Of a stretch of DNA of 44,234 nucleotides, positions 19,511 to 33,541 are shown one piece after another. Both the position numbers and the translations under genes were made by a program. Under the pieces are notes generated by a model that made no database searches, was not told the origin of the DNA, and saw nothing but the letters and a program-made list of their open reading frames with translations. Source of the stretch: Escherichia phage vB_EcoS_CEB_EC3a; the sequence record NC_047812.1, one strand, 5' to 3'. Each line of letters opens with the position of its first letter. The stretch's first letter is position 1.

Positions 19511-20269
19511 ATGTTAACACCAAAAGTTAAACTGGAAATATTCAAGCACGCAAAAGAGGTTTACCCGCATGAGTGCTGTGGAGTTGTCACGCAGAAGGGT
19601 CGGGCCCAGAAGTATCACAGAATCACCAATGCAAGCAAAGATCCTGAGAATGAATTCATCCTTGACTCAAATGAGTATGCAGATATTCTCTTTGAGTTGG
19701 CTCACAATGAATCTATTGTTTACGTAGTTCACTCTCACACTGGTGATGGTGCCACAACAAGACCCAGTCCTGCGGATATCTGTAGCTGTAACGAGTGCGA
19801 GATTCCTTACGTTATCGTAAGCATCCCAGAGGGAGATATGCGGATTCTTGAGCCATCAACCATGCCTCTGATTGGTCGACCCTGGGGCCTTGGTAGCTTT
19901 GATTGCTGGGGATTAGTCATGGAATTTCACAAGAAATACGGCGTAAAAATGAATGACTACCGCGTTAATTACCCGTGGTGGGAGAAGCGGTACAATGAAA
20001 ATATCTATGACGACAATTGGATTAAGGAAGGATTTGAGCTGGTAAAAAATTCAGATATTCCGATTGGCTCAATGATTATGATGCAGGTGCAAAGTGAGGT
20101 TACAAACCACGCTGGAATCTACATTGGCAACAACAGATTCATTCATCACCTTTATGGTAAAATGAGCTCAGTTGATATCTACTCCGATTACTGGCGAGAG
20201 CGCACTGTGCGAATCGTTCGCCATAAGGATTTACCAGAGGATGTAATTTATGACCCAGAAACTGATTGA
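19511..20269 (+). CDS. tail assembly protein (lambda gpK-like; MPN/JAMM + NlpC/P60 domains)
   Basis: JAMM-like HSHTGDGATTRPSPAD motif and C-terminal Cys/His (FDCWGLV ... HAGIYIG). Confidence 0.75.
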   Translation: MLTPKVKLEIFKHAKEVYPHECCGVVTQKGRAQKYHRITNASKDPENEFILDSNEYADILFELAHNESIVYVVHSHTGDGATTRPSPADICSCNECEIPYVIVSIPEGDMRILEPSTMPLIGRPWGLGSFDCWGLVMEFHKKYGVKMNDYRVNYPWWEKRYNENIYDDNWIKEGFELVKNSDIPIGSMIMMQVQSEVTNHAGIYIGNNRFIHHLYGKMSSVDIYSDYWRERTVRIVRHKDLPEDVIYDPETD

Positions 20270-20863: not shown

Positions 20864-23800
20864 ATGGCACAAATGATCAAAACAAACATGAGGCTTCGTG
20901 ATATGGCTGAAGAGATTAAGATTTATGGTGCTAAGGGTGGTAGCCAGAAGCAGCACCAACCAGTGGAGCAGGAAGACAACCTCATTTCACTAAACAAGGT
21001 TAAGGTTTTGCTTGCTGTCGCTGACGGAGAGGTGGATTCAAACTTCTCAATGAAGGATTTATACCTTGCTGACGTTCCCGTGCAAAACCAGGATGGTAGC
21101 TACAACTACGAAGGTGTTCGCGCTGAGTTCCGTGCTGGCACGCAGTATCAGGAATATATCGCTGGTCTTGATGGTGCCAACTCAGAGATTCAGGCTTCCA
21201 GAGAAATCACGAACGATACCCCGTACATCATTGCGGTTAACAATACTCAGCTATCAGCGATTCGAATTAAGCTATTTTGGCCTCGACTAGTTAAACAAGA
21301 GAGTAACGGTGACCTGAATGGTATAACTTGCGAGTATGCAATTGACCTTTCCGTTAATGGTGGTGCTTACCAGGAATACACTCGCGGAGTTGCTAACGGG
21401 AAGACCACTACAGGTTACGACCGCAGCATTCGCGTGAACCTTCCTGCAGAGTTTGATAGCGCATTGGTTCGCATCCGTAAGATTACAGCAGATTCAACAA
21501 GTAGCACGCTGGTTAACGGAATGCAGATTACAACCTATCAGGAAGTAATCGACGCTAAATTCCGCTATCCGCTTACGGCACTTGTTTATGTTGAGTTCGG
21601 CTCTGACTTGTTCCCTAACGGCATCCCGACAATCTCAATCAAGAAGCGATGGAAGTTAATTCAGGTCCCAACGAACTATGATCCTGAGACTAGAACCTAC
21701 AGCGGCACGTGGAATGGCCTGTTCAAAATGGCGTGGTCAAACAACCCTGCCTGGGTTCTTTATGACTTAGTGACAAACCGCCGATATGGTCTTGATCAGC
21801 GAGAGCTTGGTGTAGAGATTGATAAATGGGGACTGTATGAAGCTGCGCAATTCTGCGACCAGATGGTGCCGGATGGTAAGGGTGGAATGGAACCGCGATA
21901 TCTATGCGACATGGTTGTACAGAACAAGGTTGAGGCCTACACACTAATTCGTGACATTTGCTCAATCTTTCGTGGACTGACTTTCTATGATGGAGAAAAG
22001 ATTGGTATCGTGGTTGATAAACCTCGCAATCCATCTTACATCTTCACTAATGATAACGTTGTAAACGGATTATTCAGCCGCACTTTTGCCAGCGATAAAA
22101 GCCTTTACACTACGGCAAACGTTCAGTTTGATGATGTGGAGAACAACTATCAGCAGGATGTTGAGCCAGTATTTGAGCTCGAGGCTACTCGCCGATTTGG
22201 TTTTAACCCGGTCGACCTAACGGCAATTGGATGTACGCGAAGAAGTGAAGCAAACAGACGCGGAAGATGGCTACTGAAAACCAACCTGAGAAGCGAAACT
22301 ATCAGCTTCACTACCGGGTTGGAAGGCATGATTCCGATGATTGGTGAGGTTATTGCGGTTAATGACGCTGCATGGTCGAGCAACTACCAGTTAAACCTTT
22401 CCGGTCGTATTGAATCAGTTCAGGGATTGCAGGTTTTCACCCCGTTCAAAGTTGACGCGGCACCGGGTGACAGAATTCTTCTGAACAAGCCTGACGGAAG
22501 CCCGGAAGCAAGAACTATCGCCAGCGTTTCGGAAGATGGTAGAACTATCAACCTGAATACTGCTTTTAGTTTTGTAGCTCAGCCTGACACTGTATTCGCA
22601 ATCGATAAGGATAATCTGGCGCTTCAGCAGTATGTTGTGACCGGGATTCAAAAAGCAGATTCTGATGGTTCGGATTCATTCCAGTATACGATTACCGCGG
22701 TGGAGTATGACCCGAACAAGTATGACGAGATTGACTACGGCGTTAACATTGTTGACCGTCCAACTTCAATTGTGGAACCTGACAGATTATCGCCACCAGA
22801 AAACCTGACCGTGTCAAGTTATAGTAAGGTTGTTCAGGGCTTGTCGGTTGAGACGATGGTTATCGGATGGGATAAGGCTCCATACGCTAAAACCTACAAT
22901 GTTCAATGGAGGAAAGAAAATGGTAACTGGATTAACGTACCCAGAACAGCAAGTACAGAGGTTGATATCGAAGGTATTTACGCAGGAATCTATGACGTTA
23001 GGGTTCGCAGCGTATCAGATACTGAAAACGTGTCTGCCTGGTCTGACATTGTAACTGTATCACTAACTGGCAAGATTGGTCGTCCCTCTGCACCTACGGT
23101 TATCACGGCATCAAATGATGAAGTATTTGGTATCCGTGTTAAGTGGGGTTTCCCTGATGGCTCTGGCGATACTGCTTATACTGAACTTCAGCAGGTTGCT
23201 GATAATGGTGATGGTACATACAATCCTGATAACGCAAGTTTGCTTACGTTACTTCCGTACCCAGCCTATGAATACTGGCATACGCCAATTCAGCCAGGCA
23301 AGGTTATCTGGTATCGCGCAAGATTGATTGACAGAATCGGAAATACGTCTGATTGGTCTAATTTCTCAAGAGGCATGAGTACTGACGACGCCAACATTAT
23401 CAATGATTACATCAAGGTTGATATTGAGGGTTCTGAAGGATTCAAATACCTCGAGCAGAATGCGATTCAAAAGAATCAGGACATTCAGAATCAGGCAGAG
23501 TCAATTCTTGAGAACGCATTAGCTAATGACACTGATGTTCGTCGCATGACTAAGGAGAATGGCAAACGTAAGGCTGAATATGTTCAGGCGGTGAATCTCA
23601 TAGCTGATGAAACTCAGGCGCGTGTAGAAGCTCTAACGCAGCTTAAGGCGCAAATTGATGATGAGGTCGTTGCATCAATTACTGAAGTTCAGACAGCGTT
23701 AGCAACCGAGACGGAGGCAAGAACTACATCCGACACTCAGCTATCAGCAAGAATTGGTGATAACGAGGCAGCGTTAAACCAGAAGCTGGACGCTTTTGCT

Positions 23801-24289
23801 AACGCCACATCGACTGGCGTACAGTACGGGATTAGCCTTGGCCTGAAATACAATGGGCAGACTTATTCATCCGGGATGAGCATGGAGCTTGTTGGCACCG
23901 GTGGGAATGTTCGCAGCCAGTTCATTTTTGATGCAAACAGATTCGCGATCAGTAACGGCATTGGCTCTGGTTCCGGTCAGTGGCAGCTCCCCTTCGTTGT
24001 CGAGAACGGAAACGTAATCATCCAGAGCGCAGTAATCGGTGATGGTTCAATCAGTAACGCGAAGATTGGTAACTTTATTCAGTCAAATAACTATGTGGCA
24101 GGAACTACAGGCTGGAGGATTGATAAATCAGGAAGTGCAGAGCTAAGCAACGCCACTGTAAGAGGTAATCTTTACGCTAACAATGGTAACTTCGCATTCA
24201 ACGGAACCAATAACACTGTTCAGATTAACAACAATGGAATTACGGTAAACTTACCGAACGGAGGTAGAGTTGTAGTTGGAGTGTGGTAA
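20864..24289 (+). CDS. central tail fiber / host specificity protein (lambda gpJ-like)
   Basis: 1141 aa, last gene of tail operon after I. Confidence 0.85.
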   Translation: MAQMIKTNMRLRDMAEEIKIYGAKGGSQKQHQPVEQEDNLISLNKVKVLLAVADGEVDSNFSMKDLYLADVPVQNQDGSYNYEGVRAEFRAGTQYQEYIAGLDGANSEIQASREITNDTPYIIAVNNTQLSAIRIKLFWPRLVKQESNGDLNGITCEYAIDLSVNGGAYQEYTRGVANGKTTTGYDRSIRVNLPAEFDSALVRIRKITADSTSSTLVNGMQITTYQEVIDAKFRYPLTALVYVEFGSDLFPNGIPTISIKKRWKLIQVPTNYDPETRTYSGTWNGLFKMAWSNNPAWVLYDLVTNRRYGLDQRELGVEIDKWGLYEAAQFCDQMVPDGKGGMEPRYLCDMVVQNKVEAYTLIRDICSIFRGLTFYDGEKIGIVVDKPRNPSYIFTNDNVVNGLFSRTFASDKSLYTTANVQFDDVENNYQQDVEPVFELEATRRFGFNPVDLTAIGCTRRSEANRRGRWLLKTNLRSETISFTTGLEGMIPMIGEVIAVNDAAWSSNYQLNLSGRIESVQGLQVFTPFKVDAAPGDRILLNKPDGSPEARTIASVSEDGRTINLNTAFSFVAQPDTVFAIDKDNLALQQYVVTGIQKADSDGSDSFQYTITAVEYDPNKYDEIDYGVNIVDRPTSIVEPDRLSPPENLTVSSYSKVVQGLSVETMVIGWDKAPYAKTYNVQWRKENGNWINVPRTASTEVDIEGIYAGIYDVRVRSVSDTENVSAWSDIVTVSLTGKIGRPSAPTVITASNDEVFGIRVKWGFPDGSGDTAYTELQQVADNGDGTYNPDNASLLTLLPYPAYEYWHTPIQPGKVIWYRARLIDRIGNTSDWSNFSRGMSTDDANIINDYIKVDIEGSEGFKYLEQNAIQKNQDIQNQAESILENALANDTDVRRMTKENGKRKAEYVQAVNLIADETQARVEALTQLKAQIDDEVVASITEVQTALATETEARTTSDTQLSARIGDNEAALNQKLDAFANATSTGVQYGISLGLKYNGQTYSSGMSMELVGTGGNVRSQFIFDANRFAISNGIGSGSGQWQLPFVVENGNVIIQSAVIGDGSISNAKIGNFIQSNNYVAGTTGWRIDKSGSAELSNATVRGNLYANNGNFAFNGTNNTVQINNNGITVNLPNGGRVVVGVW

Positions 24290-24295
24290 ATGATT

Positions 24296-24320
24296 AGGCC
24301 CCTTTCGGGGCCTTTTCTTT
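24296..24320. terminator. bidirectional intrinsic terminator between convergent operons
   Basis: AGGCCCCTTTCGGGGCCT hairpin with T-run downstream and A-run upstream. Confidence 0.75.
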
Positions 24321-25291
24321 TAGTAGAAGTTTGGAATAAATGGAAGTGCCATTGATATGTTTGTGTCGAAAGGGAACCGGGCGCCAGTCTGGGTTGAATA
24401 GTTACCTATTACAGAGCCAGGAACAGCCCTAACAGAGCCTCCAGACATGCAAATGCCCTTGTATCGCAAGTTGTTATACCCTCCAGTAACTCTAGTCGTA
24501 GCGCCACATCTAAGAAGCGGGAAGAATCCACCATTTATTGACTGATATACATTGCTTATTTGTATAAATCCACTAAGTACAAATGGTCGCCTAACGCTGG
24601 AGAAAACAATCTGACCAGAGCTATTTGACATTGTAAGACCGGGTCCAGCTACTGGAGGTTCATTCCTGAATATCACCAACTGAACGTAAGTGCTTGCCGC
24701 CACGTCATCTATGCCACCATAGTTTACATCACGGCACCATATCGTACTGCCATCACTCTCCAGAGACACATTTGGGTTATCCCACTTACCAAATGGTATT
24801 CCGCTAACTGGTAGCGACGCTGCCCCGTTAACCTGTATACCTCCAACCCATGCTGCTGACATTAGTCTCGAGTTGCTTGATATAGCAAGGAAGTCAGTTG
24901 AGTTCTCAATGAGTATCCCTGGACTTGATGAAGATGAAGCCGGTAGTATCTCAAAGCAATTCCCAGCAAAGTCAATTATTCGACCTCTGGCACCATTGAA
25001 GTTGCTGAGCGTTATCCTACCAGTGCCGTCATTTACCTTTTGAAACCCGTTCATGTAATAAACTTCGGGTATAACATCATAAGCGTCAACGTGGACCGCC
25101 TTCGTTGGTAGGCAGAAAGCCGTAGAGCCAGGGGACATTGTCAATCCAAAATCCCAAGAACTTGCTGGGGTTGAAAGTCCATTGGTATTTATTGATCCAG
25201 TCACAGCAGGTGCCCTTAACCCTGCCGTAATCTCCATAGCTGGTCTTCCGTCATTGAGGTCAATCAATATACCCTGAGGCATTATTTCCAC
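24320..25291 (-). CDS. hypothetical Ser/Gly/Asn-rich protein co-transcribed with cor-like gene
   Basis: 323 aa ORF; start overlaps stop of upstream lipoprotein gene. Confidence 0.6.
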
Positions 25292-25544: not shown

Positions 25545-25606
25545 GTTTCGTTTCGATGTGGTAATAGTATCGAATCCTTGCGATCAGTGTTTAGCAATTA
25601 GTGCTA
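25545..25606 (-). promoter_or_regulatory. palindrome-promoter module, minus strand (TAGCACTAATTGCTAAA; -10 TACTAT; leader TTACCACATCGAAACGAAAC)
   Basis: Reverse complement of 25545-25612 matches module; palindrome TAG is stop of Rha-like gene. Confidence 0.6.
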
Positions 25607-26251
25607 TTTCTTTTCGAGTAACATCTTGATGTCAATGCCGAGATTATTTTCAATCAATCCAGTCAGTGCATCCGTCTTTTCTTTAAGGGCAAAACACTGA
25701 GCTTCATACTTAAATCTTTCCTCCATCTCGTCAGAGCGACTAACCCAGCACTGGCGAGCCTCGCAAGCCAGCATGTCGAGTTTTTCATCGGTATTCTTAT
25801 CCATGAGTAAGATCTCATTTATTCTTTGCTCTGCAACAATGCGCTGACTAAGGTGTGCATTTTGCGCATTAGCCACACCAAGCATCATTCGCACTTCTTT
25901 TAACTCATCAATGCTTACCATCTGGCTGATTACTTCTTCTTGTTTTTTAACTAATTGCTCAAGCTCATGAAGTCGACGGATAACTTTGTGTCGAAGCACG
26001 ACGCTGTAGCCAGTGATTAGCGTTTCGGTGAGTTCCTTGTTGAGTAAAATCTCAGATGTATAGCCTCGATTGTCTGTAAGTAGTTGATAATCATAATGAC
26101 CCAAATCTGGGGCATCGTTATAATGTAACAATTCATTGATCATTTCCTTTGTGTCGCGAACGACGTGATCATGACGTTTCCCGGTTAACTCTGCGATTTC
26201 CTTTGTGCTCATCATGGTTTTTGGTTGTTCTTTGTACAATTCAATGTTCAT
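25604..26251 (-). CDS. Rha-family phage regulatory protein (putative)
   Basis: N-terminal STKEIAELTGKRHDHVVRDTKEMI motif; start at ATG 26251 with AGAGAG RBS. Confidence 0.55.
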   Translation of the reverse strand: MNIELYKEQPKTMMSTKEIAELTGKRHDHVVRDTKEMINELLHYNDAPDLGHYDYQLLTDNRGYTSEILLNKELTETLITGYSVVLRHKVIRRLHELEQLVKKQEEVISQMVSIDELKEVRMMLGVANAQNAHLSQRIVAEQRINEILLMDKNTDEKLDMLACEARQCWVSRSDEMEERFKYEAQCFALKEKTDALTGLIENNLGIDIKMLLEKK

Positions 26252-26315
26252 TTTCATCTCTCTTTGGTTTTGTGATACGAAATTTTCGTAGCACAAGCAG
26301 CACCATTGCCGCCAT

Positions 26316-29217: not shown

Positions 29218-29223
29218 AGAAAA

Positions 29224-29245
29224 GGCCCCTTTCGGGGCCTTTTTT
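29224..29245. terminator. bidirectional intrinsic terminator
   Basis: GGCCCCTTTCGGGGCC hairpin flanked by A-run and T-run. Confidence 0.8.
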
Positions 29246-32054
29246 ATGAAGCTGTATTTACCTGAAGATATGCACCATTAGTTGCACCAAACCATGCGTA
29301 AGCAGATCCGTAAGTTGTTGGGTTATCATTTAAGATGAAGTCACCCGCTCTAATTACGCACTTTTCTCCATATTTATCAGTTGGCCTTGCACTAAAACCA
29401 TAATCAACATATCTAAAACCAACCTTCGTTACGTTCTTGTTAAGAGGAAAAATCCTTAAGAAGCTAGAAGCCCTAAAGTCATTATTCCTGAAAATTCCTC
29501 CTGTAAAGTTATCCATATCAAACATTGTGGTTAAACTTGAAGCAACAGTATTCATGAACTTGTTGCCTTCATATGTCGGAGCTACTACTTCATAGCCAAC
29601 TCTTAGCTGAACAAATCCTCCATCAAGAATATTGTCCTTAATTGTTGGGTACTGACCGCCGATTGATAACGCCCCAAAGCCAGGTGTAAATTTGCAACTA
29701 TTATTACTAAATATAGTACCAACCCAACCCTGATTTGTAATATATGGCGCTTTCGTGTCTGTCATGGTGTTTCCGGTGATAATCAATCCATTCTTAGCCT
29801 GGACTCCCTCCTGGTAGCCCTGAATCGCTACTCCACCACCAATCATAATGTTATCAGCGATAAGAATATTACTTAGACCTTCGTTAACACCCCAATCACT
29901 TTCTGAATCATTTGTTATCAGTAAGTAGTGAGAAGAAGCCCTGCCAGTAGCGTCTGTAGTTATGATGCTTGTATTCCCTTTGCATATAACATTGTTTGCC
30001 GCAAAAACCTCAACAAATATACCAGAGCCTTCGTAGTAGTTATCAGTAACCGTTATGTTATTGCCAGCAGGCGTTATACGTGACTGGATAGATATTGGAT
30101 AATAGAACTTGTTGGCGTGAGCATAAGACCTTTTGCTTTTTTCGGATATTGCATAATCCTCCGCGAAAGTGTGCCATGCCCTTCCTGACTGTTTTGTTGT
30201 GTTTCCGATAAACTCTGAGTAGTCACAGTTTCTTGTGAGTAAGCAGTAGTTAGCGTTGTATCTGAAGTTTGAATCTCTAAGAGATACGAATGCATTAGAC
30301 AAACCATTAAGAGCATCGGCATTAACAAAGGCCCTCGAGGCATTAACCTCCATACGCTCAATCAAAACTGATGCGCATCCTTCAACCATAAATCCAAACC
30401 AGTCTTCTCTTGGTTTATGCGTTGTATCTAATGGTTGGATTGAGTAATCTGAAAAGTCACTATTCCAGTTGAGGCCGCTAGCTTTAAGTGTGCAATTCTT
30501 TGCGCCGAAAACAACCCTCTCAGGTGATGAACTTCCAGATATATCGATCTCAACATCATTATTGGCAAAAATATCAACATTAAGGCCATTAATGAAGAAT
30601 GCCGTCTTCCTTAATACGTTGTACTTATCATTGTACTGAATATCAGTGGAGAATGAGACTTTCAGTCTTCCAGCGCTAATTCTTACCTTCCTGTTTGTAT
30701 TGTGACCAAGGTTTATACATGCCATAACCGAGGCGTTTGATTCATTAACTCCAGACACATCATGACCAGCCCATTCGGTATGGATATCATCAACACCTCC
30801 CGTAAACCTAACCCAGCAACCATTTTCACCTGGTGATGTCTCACCCGCTCCGCTAAGGAAGTCTGAAAGCGTGGAATATGTACCATCAAATGGAACCGTT
30901 GGGCTAAAAACAGTAATCCCGTTATGTTCGCTCTTACTTACTAATGGACTCCAGTAGAACAGACCGCCACCAGAGTTTGATCCAGAAATGTAAGACCTTA
31001 CATTTGCTAAATTTTTATTCTCATTTGTTTGTTTGATTAGTTCGTAAATTGAATCAACTGAAGATAGTCCTAAATTACTCCTGGCAAGGCTTTTATCCGC
31101 AACATCAGAGAAATTCAATGATTTTTGAAAAGTCTCATTTTTTGAGTAAACATCAAGTAAACCTCTTACTCGCTGGGCGTTAGCGCCTCCAGCTTCATTT
31201 CCGCCAGGCAAGTAGATTGACTCTCTAACATAGTAATTCCTAACACCACCGGAAGTATTGTAACTGATGTGATAACGTCTAAAGTTGCCATCGATACCGG
31301 TGTAGGTTGACACTTGAATATTTCTTGATCCAGTCCCAGTTGCTCCGCCCTCTACAGATATAACAAGCGTAGCATTGCTTGGTACTTTTAATGCTTCTGG
31401 TGCATTTGTGCAAGCAGAGAAAGCAACCCTATAATGACCGCCAACAACAAAATTAAAAGTTTGGAAATCAAGTTCACTTAAAATATTGCTACCATTACCG
31501 ATACCCCAACCAGAAAGTGTAACTAGTGTTCCAGCATCACCAGCACTATTAATTGCCTCAATAGTAGCATCTCTCGCTGATGTGGTTGTATCTCTTGCAC
31601 TAACGGCAGTAGCTGCGCTCTCTGCGGCAGCAATCTGGCTAGCTAAAGCATCCGCTGCTCCTTGCACTGACTGGCTTGCCAATTGCTCAAAGCGAGGCCA
31701 ATCAAAAGAATCCTGACCAATGAAATCAATCAGGCTCTGAATGCTAGTTTCCCTACTCTGATAATAACGAAGTGTCTCCGCTACATTTTGAGCTAAACCC
31801 TGAACACTAATACCATCATGTGCAAGGATTGCATAACCAGTGCCAGCGGGAACGGTTTCACCATTAGGGTTGTATACAGCCATTGATGTGTCGCTGGTGA
31901 TTTCAGAGATAGTGTAAATCTGTACTGGCTCCGTTTTAAACACTAAAGTAGCACCAACGCGAATAAGTGTTAGTGGCATGGTCCATTGAGTGCCAACTCC
32001 AGTAACCTGACCGTTCGCTGCTAAACTGGCAGTGCCAGTATCATAAATTGCCAT
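29244..32054 (-). CDS. tailspike / side tail fiber with parallel beta-helix (putative polysaccharide depolymerase)
   Basis: 936 aa; repeated beta-helix-like motifs (NNVICKGNTSIITTD, NILIADNIMIGGG, IITGNTMTD, IKDNILDGG); start at ATG 32054 with GGAGAC RBS. Confidence 0.7.
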   Translation of the reverse strand: MAIYDTGTASLAANGQVTGVGTQWTMPLTLIRVGATLVFKTEPVQIYTISEITSDTSMAVYNPNGETVPAGTGYAILAHDGISVQGLAQNVAETLRYYQSRETSIQSLIDFIGQDSFDWPRFEQLASQSVQGAADALASQIAAAESAATAVSARDTTTSARDATIEAINSAGDAGTLVTLSGWGIGNGSNILSELDFQTFNFVVGGHYRVAFSACTNAPEALKVPSNATLVISVEGGATGTGSRNIQVSTYTGIDGNFRRYHISYNTSGGVRNYYVRESIYLPGGNEAGGANAQRVRGLLDVYSKNETFQKSLNFSDVADKSLARSNLGLSSVDSIYELIKQTNENKNLANVRSYISGSNSGGGLFYWSPLVSKSEHNGITVFSPTVPFDGTYSTLSDFLSGAGETSPGENGCWVRFTGGVDDIHTEWAGHDVSGVNESNASVMACINLGHNTNRKVRISAGRLKVSFSTDIQYNDKYNVLRKTAFFINGLNVDIFANNDVEIDISGSSSPERVVFGAKNCTLKASGLNWNSDFSDYSIQPLDTTHKPREDWFGFMVEGCASVLIERMEVNASRAFVNADALNGLSNAFVSLRDSNFRYNANYCLLTRNCDYSEFIGNTTKQSGRAWHTFAEDYAISEKSKRSYAHANKFYYPISIQSRITPAGNNITVTDNYYEGSGIFVEVFAANNVICKGNTSIITTDATGRASSHYLLITNDSESDWGVNEGLSNILIADNIMIGGGVAIQGYQEGVQAKNGLIITGNTMTDTKAPYITNQGWVGTIFSNNSCKFTPGFGALSIGGQYPTIKDNILDGGFVQLRVGYEVVAPTYEGNKFMNTVASSLTTMFDMDNFTGGIFRNNDFRASSFLRIFPLNKNVTKVGFRYVDYGFSARPTDKYGEKCVIRAGDFILNDNPTTYGSAYAWFGATNGAYLQVNTAS

Positions 32055-32078
32055 TGTGTAAAGTCTCCATTTGTAAAG

Positions 32079-32095
32079 TAGCACTAATTGCTAAA
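32079..32095 (+). promoter_or_regulatory. palindrome TAGCACTAATTGCTAAA in + orientation between two minus-strand genes
   Basis: Motif family member; possible downstream -10 TGTATAAAA at 32119-32127 would read antisense into primase gene. Confidence 0.4.
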
Positions 32096-32120
32096 GTGGA
32101 TTGTATCATCTTTCATGTAT

Positions 32121-32143
32121 AAAAAAACCTCCCGAAGGAGGTT
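32121..32143 (-). terminator. intrinsic terminator (minus strand) after primase gene
   Basis: Reverse complement AACCTCCTTCGGGAGGTT + T7. Confidence 0.75.
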
Positions 32144-33065
32144 AGTCTAGTAATTCGCTTGCTTTGTATATTCGCTTTCTTATGCCTGACTTGAAAAAAT
32201 TATCATCATTTGGCATTACCACATCAAGATTGCGATCGTCAGCAACAGCGAGTAAATCAAAATCGTGGCGAGTACAAGCGACGCGTAACTTGTAGTTTCT
32301 AAGCGCATAAGCAACCATTTCCATGTTGTAGCTGGAGTGGCAAACAAGCACACAGCGGTTGCCAGTAGCAATGTGAACGCGATAGCCGTCAATGAGATTA
32401 TCGACCAGATAAGCGTACTCATCATCTTTAAAGGCGCCAATAATAGAAACAGACTGGCGAGTATAATCTTTTGCAGCATAGCTAACATCTCCATCTTCAT
32501 TGATAAACATTACATTGCACATATCATCTGATATGCCGTCACTATAAGCCATAAAGCACGGTACTGCGTGTATTAGTTCGCCTGATTTAGTCCTGCCAAC
32601 ATCAAAACCAAATTCGCTATAGATACCCTCGTATATACTGAGCGGTGTTGATTCTACTCTTTCCGTCCTTTCCATTATCTCAAGGCATCTTTCGTGGTCA
32701 ATCTGCGCGCCCATTTTATAAAGCTTAGTTCTTGATGCTTGCTTGTTTGCCTTAACTATAACCTCAATTGGTGTTAAGTTCAGCCAGTCACCAAGCAAAT
32801 TCACTGAATCGGCGAAGGACGATCCAGTGCACTTCATGACCCATCCTATACCTGAGTCACTTCCGCATTTCGAACAAACTGCCGCGCCATTTCCTTTTTC
32901 ACTGCCTATTTCGTCGGTAAATCTGAATCTGTCAGTGCCAAGGCAGTATGGGCATGGTCCGTGCTTCTTACTTAGGTGTCTATCATTCCAACCAAGTTCC
33001 TTTGCATAAAATAATTTCCACAATCCGGCCATCTTAGGTATAACTTCATTCTTATCGTAATTCAT
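32142..33065 (-). CDS. DNA primase (zinc-ribbon containing)
   Basis: Cys motif CPYC...CSKC near N-terminus; adjacent to helicase region. Confidence 0.6.
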   Translation of the reverse strand: MNYDKNEVIPKMAGLWKLFYAKELGWNDRHLSKKHGPCPYCLGTDRFRFTDEIGSEKGNGAAVCSKCGSDSGIGWVMKCTGSSFADSVNLLGDWLNLTPIEVIVKANKQASRTKLYKMGAQIDHERCLEIMERTERVESTPLSIYEGIYSEFGFDVGRTKSGELIHAVPCFMAYSDGISDDMCNVMFINEDGDVSYAAKDYTRQSVSIIGAFKDDEYAYLVDNLIDGYRVHIATGNRCVLVCHSSYNMEMVAYALRNYKLRVACTRHDFDLLAVADDRNLDVVMPNDDNFFKSGIRKRIYKASELLD

Positions 33066-33541
33066 TTGCTTAACCCGTGATTTTCGTGAAAGTTGTATTT
33101 TCTCTCTGCTTCAATTCTTACTTTATACGCCTGCTCTGGAGTATCGAAGTTCCCAAGGTGTAGCTGCTTACCGTCAACCTTGATGTGAGCCTTAAATTTT
33201 CCGTGATTTAGCTTTGCCACTCCACAATAACCAGTTGTTGATAAAACGCTAAGCTTGCAATTTCTTGAGTTACCTTGATTTGTTGTTACTCTTAGGTTTT
33301 CTATTCTGTTATCTAATTTGTTATGGTTTATATGATCAATGTAGTCGCCATTTTTAAGTTCTCCATTAAACATCTCCCACACAACTCTATGTACATAAGT
33401 CCTAAAGCCATTAACAGACACTTTGTAATAGCCAGATGTAGATAGTGAGTTGCACTCATCGCCAACCTTAACACGTCTTGCAGTGCTAATCTTCCAATGC
33501 AATTTGCCATCTACATAGTAAAAATAATCATGCCAGTTCAT
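33062..33541 (-). CDS. HNH homing endonuclease with AP2-like DNA-binding domain
   Basis: DYIDHINHNKLDNRIENLR HNH motif; GYCGVAK...GKQLHLGNFDT AP2-like segment. Confidence 0.8.
   Translation of the reverse strand: MNWHDYFYYVDGKLHWKISTARRVKVGDECNSLSTSGYYKVSVNGFRTYVHRVVWEMFNGELKNGDYIDHINHNKLDNRIENLRVTTNQGNSRNCKLSVLSTTGYCGVAKLNHGKFKAHIKVDGKQLHLGNFDTPEQAYKVRIEAERKYNFHENHGLSK

Follow-up and report, generated by a model that had tools for sequence, protein, structure and literature searches.

A beta-helix protein of Escherichia phage vB_EcoS_CEB_EC3a is probably a lateral tailspike directed at a surface polysaccharide, with the O6 O-antigen as the leading candidate

Results

Escherichia phage vB_EcoS_CEB_EC3a (hereafter EC3a; sequence record NC_047812.1), a T1-like phage of the Drexlerviridae, Braunvirinae, carries on its minus strand a gene for a 936-residue protein that, judged from homology and structural modelling, is likely to be a lateral tailspike, with a beta-helix that would read, and probably cleave, a polysaccharide of the host surface, most likely the O6 O-antigen. 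All coordinates refer to the window, that is, the whole stretch of 44,234 nucleotides analysed (Table 1). An earlier reading of this DNA, made from its letters without database searches and called here the sequence-only reading, had described a 936-amino-acid (aa) minus-strand protein at 29244-32054 as a beta-helix tailspike; the open reading frame (ORF) is present as described, from the ATG at 32054.

The C-terminal module is modelled as a parallel beta-helix

From 22 sequences, AlphaFold2 (AF2) produced a confident model of aa 315-936 (predicted local distance difference test, pLDDT, 86.4; predicted template modelling score, pTM, 0.85) that folded aa 462-860, some 400 residues of short repeated strands, into a right-handed parallel beta-helix preceded by a capping helix at aa 440-453. 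In a Foldseek search with this model the HK620 tailspike ranked first (probability 1.0), and the best matches were enzymes. The beta-helix proposed from five repeat motifs in the sequence-only reading was thus confirmed by both programs, and all five motifs were found inside the modelled helix, at aa 687, 729, 758, 781 and 805 (span 687-813). Because the fold matches extend over many enzyme families at 7-16% identity, the fold alone does not name the reaction. The last rung is followed by a small domain that we infer might act as a trimer lock.

Comparison of 11 homologues, the most distant at 32% identity, shows 76 invariant residues, including a ladder of Asn residues and eight acids (E405, D432, D476, E512, E550, D580, E632 and E682). 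Among these acids, E550 and D580, and also E512, E632 and E682, are candidate catalytic residues. E550 and D580 lie 30 residues apart; the catalytic pairs of the tailspikes of P22, Sf6 and HK620 are spaced by roughly 33 residues, a similarity that serves as a lead only.

The N-terminal region resembles the anchor of T1-family depolymerases

Residues 1-170 match the Klebsiella depolymerases Depo32 and DpK2 (PDB 7VYV, 7VZ3 and 7LZJ; E = 8e-32), and most invariant columns among 69 Drexlerviridae homologues fall in aa 1-110. In Depo32 the corresponding region has been named the conserved anchor domain plus helical bundle of KP36-like (T1-family) phages (PMC10581125). The N-terminal ~150 residues had been described from the sequence as Ala/Gln-rich, which holds in part: aa 111-180 are indeed rich in Ala (24%), but Gln reaches only 7% there, and the conserved domain of aa 1-110 is rich in Thr, Ala and Gly (T 14%, A 10%, Q 6%).

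The AF2 monomer model of aa 1-345 was weak (pLDDT 64.7 overall; 34-70 in aa 1-110), as would be anticipated when one chain of an intertwined trimer is modelled alone; the low confidence is compatible with such an assembly but no proof of it. Its long helix (aa 119-182) is presumably a trimeric coiled-coil stalk, the counterpart of the Depo32 helical bundle. For the beta-sandwich that comes next (aa 190-290), Foldseek searches of the N-terminal model against the PDB gave no significant match (best E = 0.34). Three 849-aa relatives (P0016-18) lack aa 144-328 and hence the sandwich, and in one of them, P0016, the place of the sandwich, ahead of the module, is taken by a Tail_spike_N domain (aa 182-238). 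The sandwich may offer a second site for carbohydrate binding, or one at which another fibre docks.

Homology breaks sharply at a junction motif (aa 296-332) that is present in several fibre alleles. When 129 homologues were compared with the tailspike by BLAST, the end-points of about 100 clustered at aa ~307-340; these ~100 listed homologues are 49-81% identical to the tailspike from aa 1 as far as aa ~330, beyond which their C-termini are of other kinds, Pectate_lyase_3, Beta_helix and Peptidase_S74 among them. The reverse holds for about 10 protein clusters, whose homology is confined to aa ~315-936; homologues of the C-terminal module begin at aa 315-330.

Table 1. Features of the tailspike gene and related loci in the EC3a window (AF2, AlphaFold2)
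Feature	Position	Strand	Basis or remark
Complete tailspike (lateral tail fibre) gene	29244..32054	-	936 aa plus stop codon; ORF list, homologues, phrog_24092
aa 1-110, conserved virion-anchor domain (predicted)	31725..32054	-	Depo32/DpK2 similarity, conservation
aa 119-182, Ala-rich long alpha-helix	31509..31700	-	Single 64-residue helix, AF2 model
aa 190-290, beta-sandwich	31185..31487	-	Five strands, pLDDT 79-93, AF2 model
aa 296-332, junction motif LDVYSKxETFxKSLNFSDxxxKxxARxNLG	31059..31169	-	Homology to other fibre alleles ends here
aa 345-460, small conserved domain (GGGxFxW...HNG...CW) and beta-helix capping helix	30675..31022	-	Densest block of invariant residues
aa 462-860, right-handed parallel beta-helix	29475..30671	-	Presumed glycan-binding and catalytic body; holds the five repeat motifs
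aa 877-936, small C-terminal domain	29247..29426	-	Strands and one helix after the last rung, pLDDT 67-86
Terminator-like hairpin between primase and tailspike genes	32126..32143	-	AACCTCCTTCGGGAGGTT then TTTTT; pattern scan
Hairpin GGCCCC-TTTC-GGGGCC between A-run and T-run	29220..29245		Read from the sequence
J-like central tail fibre / tip attachment protein	20864..24289	+	phrog_31; Pfam FNIII-A_GpJ, Phage-tail_3, Phage_Tail_Tip
DUF6453 protein downstream of J, presumed terminal-receptor-binding protein	24320..25291	-	PF20051, E = 1.9e-139

The module is shared among phages and prophages of several types

An exhaustive HMMER search over 1.84 billion representatives returned 17 clusters (50% identity) at E ≤ 1e-30 and 540 matches at E ≤ 1e-3, most of the other ~520 covering only the small domain at aa ~350-470. 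The module follows a Tail_spike_N domain in Citrobacter phage K1M, where it is annotated 'tail spike', and in Kagunavirus; further copies occur in T7-like Kayfunavirus and Vectrevirus and in N4-like Gamaleyavirus. In the Salmonella prophage protein P0121 it stands, at 62% identity, behind a full P22 Head_binding domain (PF09008, E = 1.5e-63). A single glycan-reading module thus appears joined to at least six attachment domains and tail types.

The Salmonella proteins (P0121 and P0130-P0141, all with the 62% module on a P22 head-binding domain) are common in S. enterica, one member occurring on 467 contigs; the serovars named are Johannesburg and Bukavu. A blastn search in 'distant' mode with the module DNA over 5,426 complete E. 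coli genomes gave no match, so that no E. coli prophage copy is available to tie the module to an O-type.

Compared with the P22-type podoviral tailspikes, the endoglycosidases of P22, Sf6 and HK620, the EC3a protein lacks the head-binding domain (PF09008 was not found in it), shows 11-12% identity to HK620, and does not allow the catalytic residues of P22 and HK620 to be mapped onto it by sequence. A PDB sequence search likewise gave no match beyond the anchor region.

The hosts of phages that share the module suggest the O6 O-antigen as the likely target

The closest evidence on the substrate comes from phage phiEB49, also of the Drexlerviridae, whose host is CFT073 (O6:K2:H1). Its gp24 (997 aa, with Tail_spike_N, PF18668, at aa 323-388 just before the module) is 71.6% identical to the EC3a tailspike over the module and 58% overall. 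On CFT073 waaL, wzy and waaG mutants phiEB49 gave 0 pfu, complementation restored plating, and the K2 capsule was not needed and even hindered infection (PMC12488582); that study of O6 did not assign the dependence to gp24. The EC3a tailspike is more similar still to those of its closest relatives, ACG-M12 (90.6% identity) and UALMA_PCEc3 (93.6%). UALMA_PCEc3 was isolated on ATCC 25922, which we take to be the same strain as CECT 434 and of serotype O6. EC3a itself has been used against CECT 434 (PMC5727068), and ACG-M12 lysed 4/4 O6:H1 uropathogenic E. coli isolates, CFT073, both O14 isolates and 4/6 O-rough isolates (PMC3347319). Taken together, the host data for phiEB49, ACG-M12, UALMA_PCEc3 and EC3a single out the E. 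coli O6 O-antigen as the likeliest target of the EC3a tailspike, a choice that we favour by a modest measure. The sequence-only reading had left the depolymerase specificity open; the phages with the same module now suggest O6, which for EC3a itself remains an extrapolation from relatives.

Several observations weigh against reading the protein as an O6-directed tailspike. Homology of 72-91% does not guarantee the same glycan specificity. Scans of the whole tailspike against Pfam-A (E ≤ 1) and NCBIfam detected no domain, including PF12708 (Pectate_lyase_3) and PF13229 (Beta_helix), one or other of which sister alleles at the locus do match; the sole Pfam label of the module is a precomputed PF27114. 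The Salmonella serovars Johannesburg and Bukavu, in which the 62% module occurs, are presumably O:40; the literature searched, including a review of E. coli O-antigens, gave nothing usable linking Salmonella O:40 to E. coli O6. Finally, the correlation with O6 is imperfect, since ACG-M12 was also spot-positive on two O18ac:H7, one O25:H1 and one O135:H6 isolate, and was negative on one O6:H25 isolate (PMC3347319).

These exceptions bear on an alternative that we consider unlikely, namely that the protein is a virion tailspike whose substrate is a capsule (K-antigen) or other exopolysaccharide rather than O6, as the O18ac:H7, O25:H1 and O135:H6 isolates lysed by ACG-M12 could have a K type in common. 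Large halos such as that of EC3a are classically tied to capsule depolymerases, the nearest solved relatives of the anchor, Depo32 and DpK2, degrade the K2 capsule, and the Drexlerviridae phages Bas04 and Bas06 require the K2 capsule of CFT073 (PMC12488582). However, phiEB49, with its 72% identical module, plated normally on a ksl mutant lacking the capsule but failed to plate on O-antigen mutants. The hosts CFT073 (K2) and 536 (K15) differ in capsule and have O6 in common, although 536 is implied only by the name of phage 536P11, at 39% identity. Tailspikes of P22-type prophages, in which the module also occurs, are typically O-antigen specific, which further counts against a capsular substrate. 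Depo32 (phage GH-K3) and DpK2, from KP36-like siphophages, show no detectable sequence similarity to EC3a beyond aa 170; Depo32 has after its helix a carbohydrate-binding module that EC3a lacks, and its substrate is capsule, not lipopolysaccharide (LPS).

The tailspike is a better candidate for the EC3a halo than the gpK-like peptidase

EC3a forms plaques of 2.6 mm with a halo of 11.5 mm; its authors ran HHpred on all ORFs, found no 'typical lyase domain' and ascribed the halo to the NlpC/P60 domain of ORF35 (PMC5727068). In the window, ORF35 (19511-20269, plus strand) is an ordinary gpK-like Prok-JAB plus NlpC/P60 tail assembly protein within the M-L-K-I-J tail-tip module. The published attribution is probably wrong, because ORF35 is a standard protein of tail assembly, and the tailspike is the better candidate. 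The repeat unit of the O6 antigen reportedly contains no uronic acid, so that hydrolysis, rather than beta-elimination by a lyase, would be expected.

It is also conceivable, though somewhat less so than a capsular substrate, that the beta-helix is a non-catalytic adhesin that binds its glycan reversibly, the halo having another cause. Against this, the eight acids are invariant down to 32% identity across phage families, which is more than the binding of differing glycans should demand, and the top fold matches of the module are enzymes. Nor was any other depolymerase candidate found among the scanned tail-tip and other proteins (lambda-like tail, recombination and replication), and the authors' own HHpred survey of all ORFs brought up the gpK-like peptidase alone.

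The gene occupies the lateral tail fibre locus of the family

The tailspike gene is flanked by plus-strand genes for exonuclease VIII, Erf and the single-stranded DNA-binding protein (SSB) on one side, and by genes for primase, HNH endonuclease, a regulator and helicase on the other, all identified by PHROG matches, whereas the opposite strand carries, at 15.3-24.3 kb, the lambda-like tail operon with the genes for tape measure, M, L, K, I and J. Its placement in the replication arm, apart from the tail operon, had thus been recognised correctly, but it is no oddity: the lateral tail fibre locus of the Drexlerviridae has been described family-wide as lying between exactly such genes, for recombination on one side and for primase/helicase on the other, and as conserved solely at the 5' end of the fibre gene (Maffei 2021, PMC8594841). 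The closest phages, UALMA_PCEc3 and ACG-M12 (Drexlerviridae, Braunvirinae, Guelphvirus), are ~91-95% identical to EC3a in nucleotide sequence, and ACG-M12 shows the same gene order around the locus (recombination genes, fibre, primase-helicase).

That the gene sits among early and replication genes could suggest a soluble, non-structural protein co-expressed with them, a reading that we find scarcely credible given that terminator-like hairpins on either side insulate the gene, that its N-terminus is the anchor domain common to hundreds of T1-family fibre proteins, that lateral fibres are known to be encoded at this locus across the family, and that short terminal fibres of 12 nm are seen in electron micrographs of ACG-M12 virions. 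In proteomic studies of related phages the J-like fibre was the only one detected.

Between the regulator and primase genes, EC3a has an HNH endonuclease gene (33062-33541, minus strand) that overlaps the start of the primase gene by 4 nt and is missing from that spot in ACG-M12. ACG-M12 in turn has an 'endonuclease' gene between its tail fibre and SSB genes (L001 10860-11201) that is missing from EC3a. Mobile nucleases on differing sides of the variable fibre locus in close relatives might promote fibre exchange.

Two further observations concern the genome and its relatives. A 230-aa ORF at 25604-26296 (minus strand) matches anti-repressor (Ant-like) PHROGs (phrog_8235, E = 2e-86), in a phage described as strictly virulent. 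The records of 'Pseudomonas phage PsgS01F' and E. coli phage UALMA_PCEc3 (PP134917.1, PQ314493.1) are both 44,679 bp long, and the statistics of their matches hardly differ for the tailspike gene and do not differ at all for the C-terminal module and the DUF6453 protein; the host label of PsgS01F (P. syringae pv. garcae) seems questionable, the genome being typical of E. coli Drexlerviridae.

Gene start and transcription signals

The ORF extends over 29244..32084 and encodes 946 aa from a GTG, or 936 aa from the in-frame ATG at 32054. The ATG is the true start, because all full-length homologues begin, from residue 1 onward, with MAIYD and because a GGAG lies 10 nt upstream of it; the GTG at 32084 was rejected, as homologues begin at MAIYD. 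The protein is 100% identical to the database entry 'tail fiber protein [Escherichia phage vB_EcoS_CEB_EC3a]'. The ORF length of 2.8 kb, the 567 homologues at E ≤ 1e-3 and the full-length match to phrog_24092 'tail fiber protein' (E=0) indicate that this is not a chance ORF.

The hairpin beyond the 3' end of the gene, which was not among the reports of the pattern scan for terminators, is likely a bidirectional terminator for the convergent SSB and tailspike genes. With terminator-like hairpins on both sides, the gene looks like a separate transcription unit. A sigma-70 promoter scan, which requires a -35 hexamer, found no convincing promoter for it. Between the primase terminator and the tailspike ATG, 45 nt upstream of the latter, lies TGATACAAT (32100-32108, minus strand), a possible extended -10 element that the promoter scan did not report.

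A second receptor is presumably read by the DUF6453 protein

The sequence-only reading had paired the tailspike with the J protein in a dual recognition of polysaccharide and outer-membrane protein. The two-step scheme fits, but the outer-membrane receptor is thought to be read not by J itself but by the receptor-binding protein (RBP) encoded downstream of J, together with a superinfection-exclusion lipoprotein, where the terminal-receptor specificity of the Drexlerviridae has been placed (PMC8594841). In EC3a this position is taken by the DUF6453 protein. Its allele is at least 88% identical in the O157-specific phages AHP24, AKS96 and BECP10, the E. coli C phage Msk, the ECOR57 phage SU57 and the O6 phages. 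The pairing of the same terminal RBP with different tailspikes therefore fits two-step, modular recognition. The EC3a protein belongs to the JK06/ACG-M12 allele and is 38.6% identical to rtp44 of RTP; because RTP, for which LptD has been proposed, carries another allele, we make no call on LptD as the terminal receptor.

Discussion

We propose that residues 1-110 of the EC3a tailspike would anchor it to the tail tip, probably as a trimer, with the helix as a stalk and the beta-sandwich and junction (aa 190-290 and 296-332) leading to an exchangeable module of aa ~330-936. The beta-helix would bind a host surface polysaccharide, most likely the O6 O-antigen, and probably cleave it hydrolytically. 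Cleavage could let the virion sink into the LPS layer far enough for the J-associated DUF6453 protein to meet its outer-membrane receptor, and enzyme diffusing out of plaques would account for the large halo of EC3a. A bolder version, which we entertain but would not yet back, holds that aa 330-936 are the first recognisable member of a small, uncharacterised family of O-antigen endoglycosidases, specific for O6, with an O:40-type relative on P22-like prophages of Salmonella and new catalytic acids around E550/D580, that this enzyme and not the gpK-like peptidase causes the halo, and that the O-antigen is obligatory in this branch of T1-like phages and not, as is generally supposed, an optional first contact.

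The lateral fibres described for the Drexlerviridae of the BASEL collection resemble the EC3a protein in position, in their conserved N-terminus and hypervariable remainder, and in a glycan-first role before a porin-type terminal receptor (PMC8594841). That work does not analyse the EC3a allele, and it deems glycan contact probably dispensable, in contrast with the strict need of phiEB49 for O6. Proven dependence on an O-antigen within the family is also offered by BECP10, an O157-specific T1-like phage with a variable tail spike, to which wzy mutants are resistant (PMC8402813). BECP10 and EC3a have the same DUF6453 RBP allele (88.9% identical), but BECP10 recognises the O157 antigen and was absent from the phage records matched by the EC3a module. 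One terminal RBP allele is thus carried by both O6-infecting and O157-specific phages.

The EC3a tailspike is an uncharacterised addition to a well-known kind, and nothing about it is conceptually new. What the present analysis adds is a confident fold, a domain map, candidate catalytic residues, an O6 hypothesis supported by the literature and a candidate for the halo, whose published assignment is corrected in that the beta-helix tailspike is a far better candidate than the gpK-like peptidase. O6, the serogroup of CFT073, 536, Nissle and ATCC 25922, ranks with the most frequent in uropathogenic E. coli, and typing, phage engineering or anti-virulence work would benefit from a defined O6-specific tailspike.

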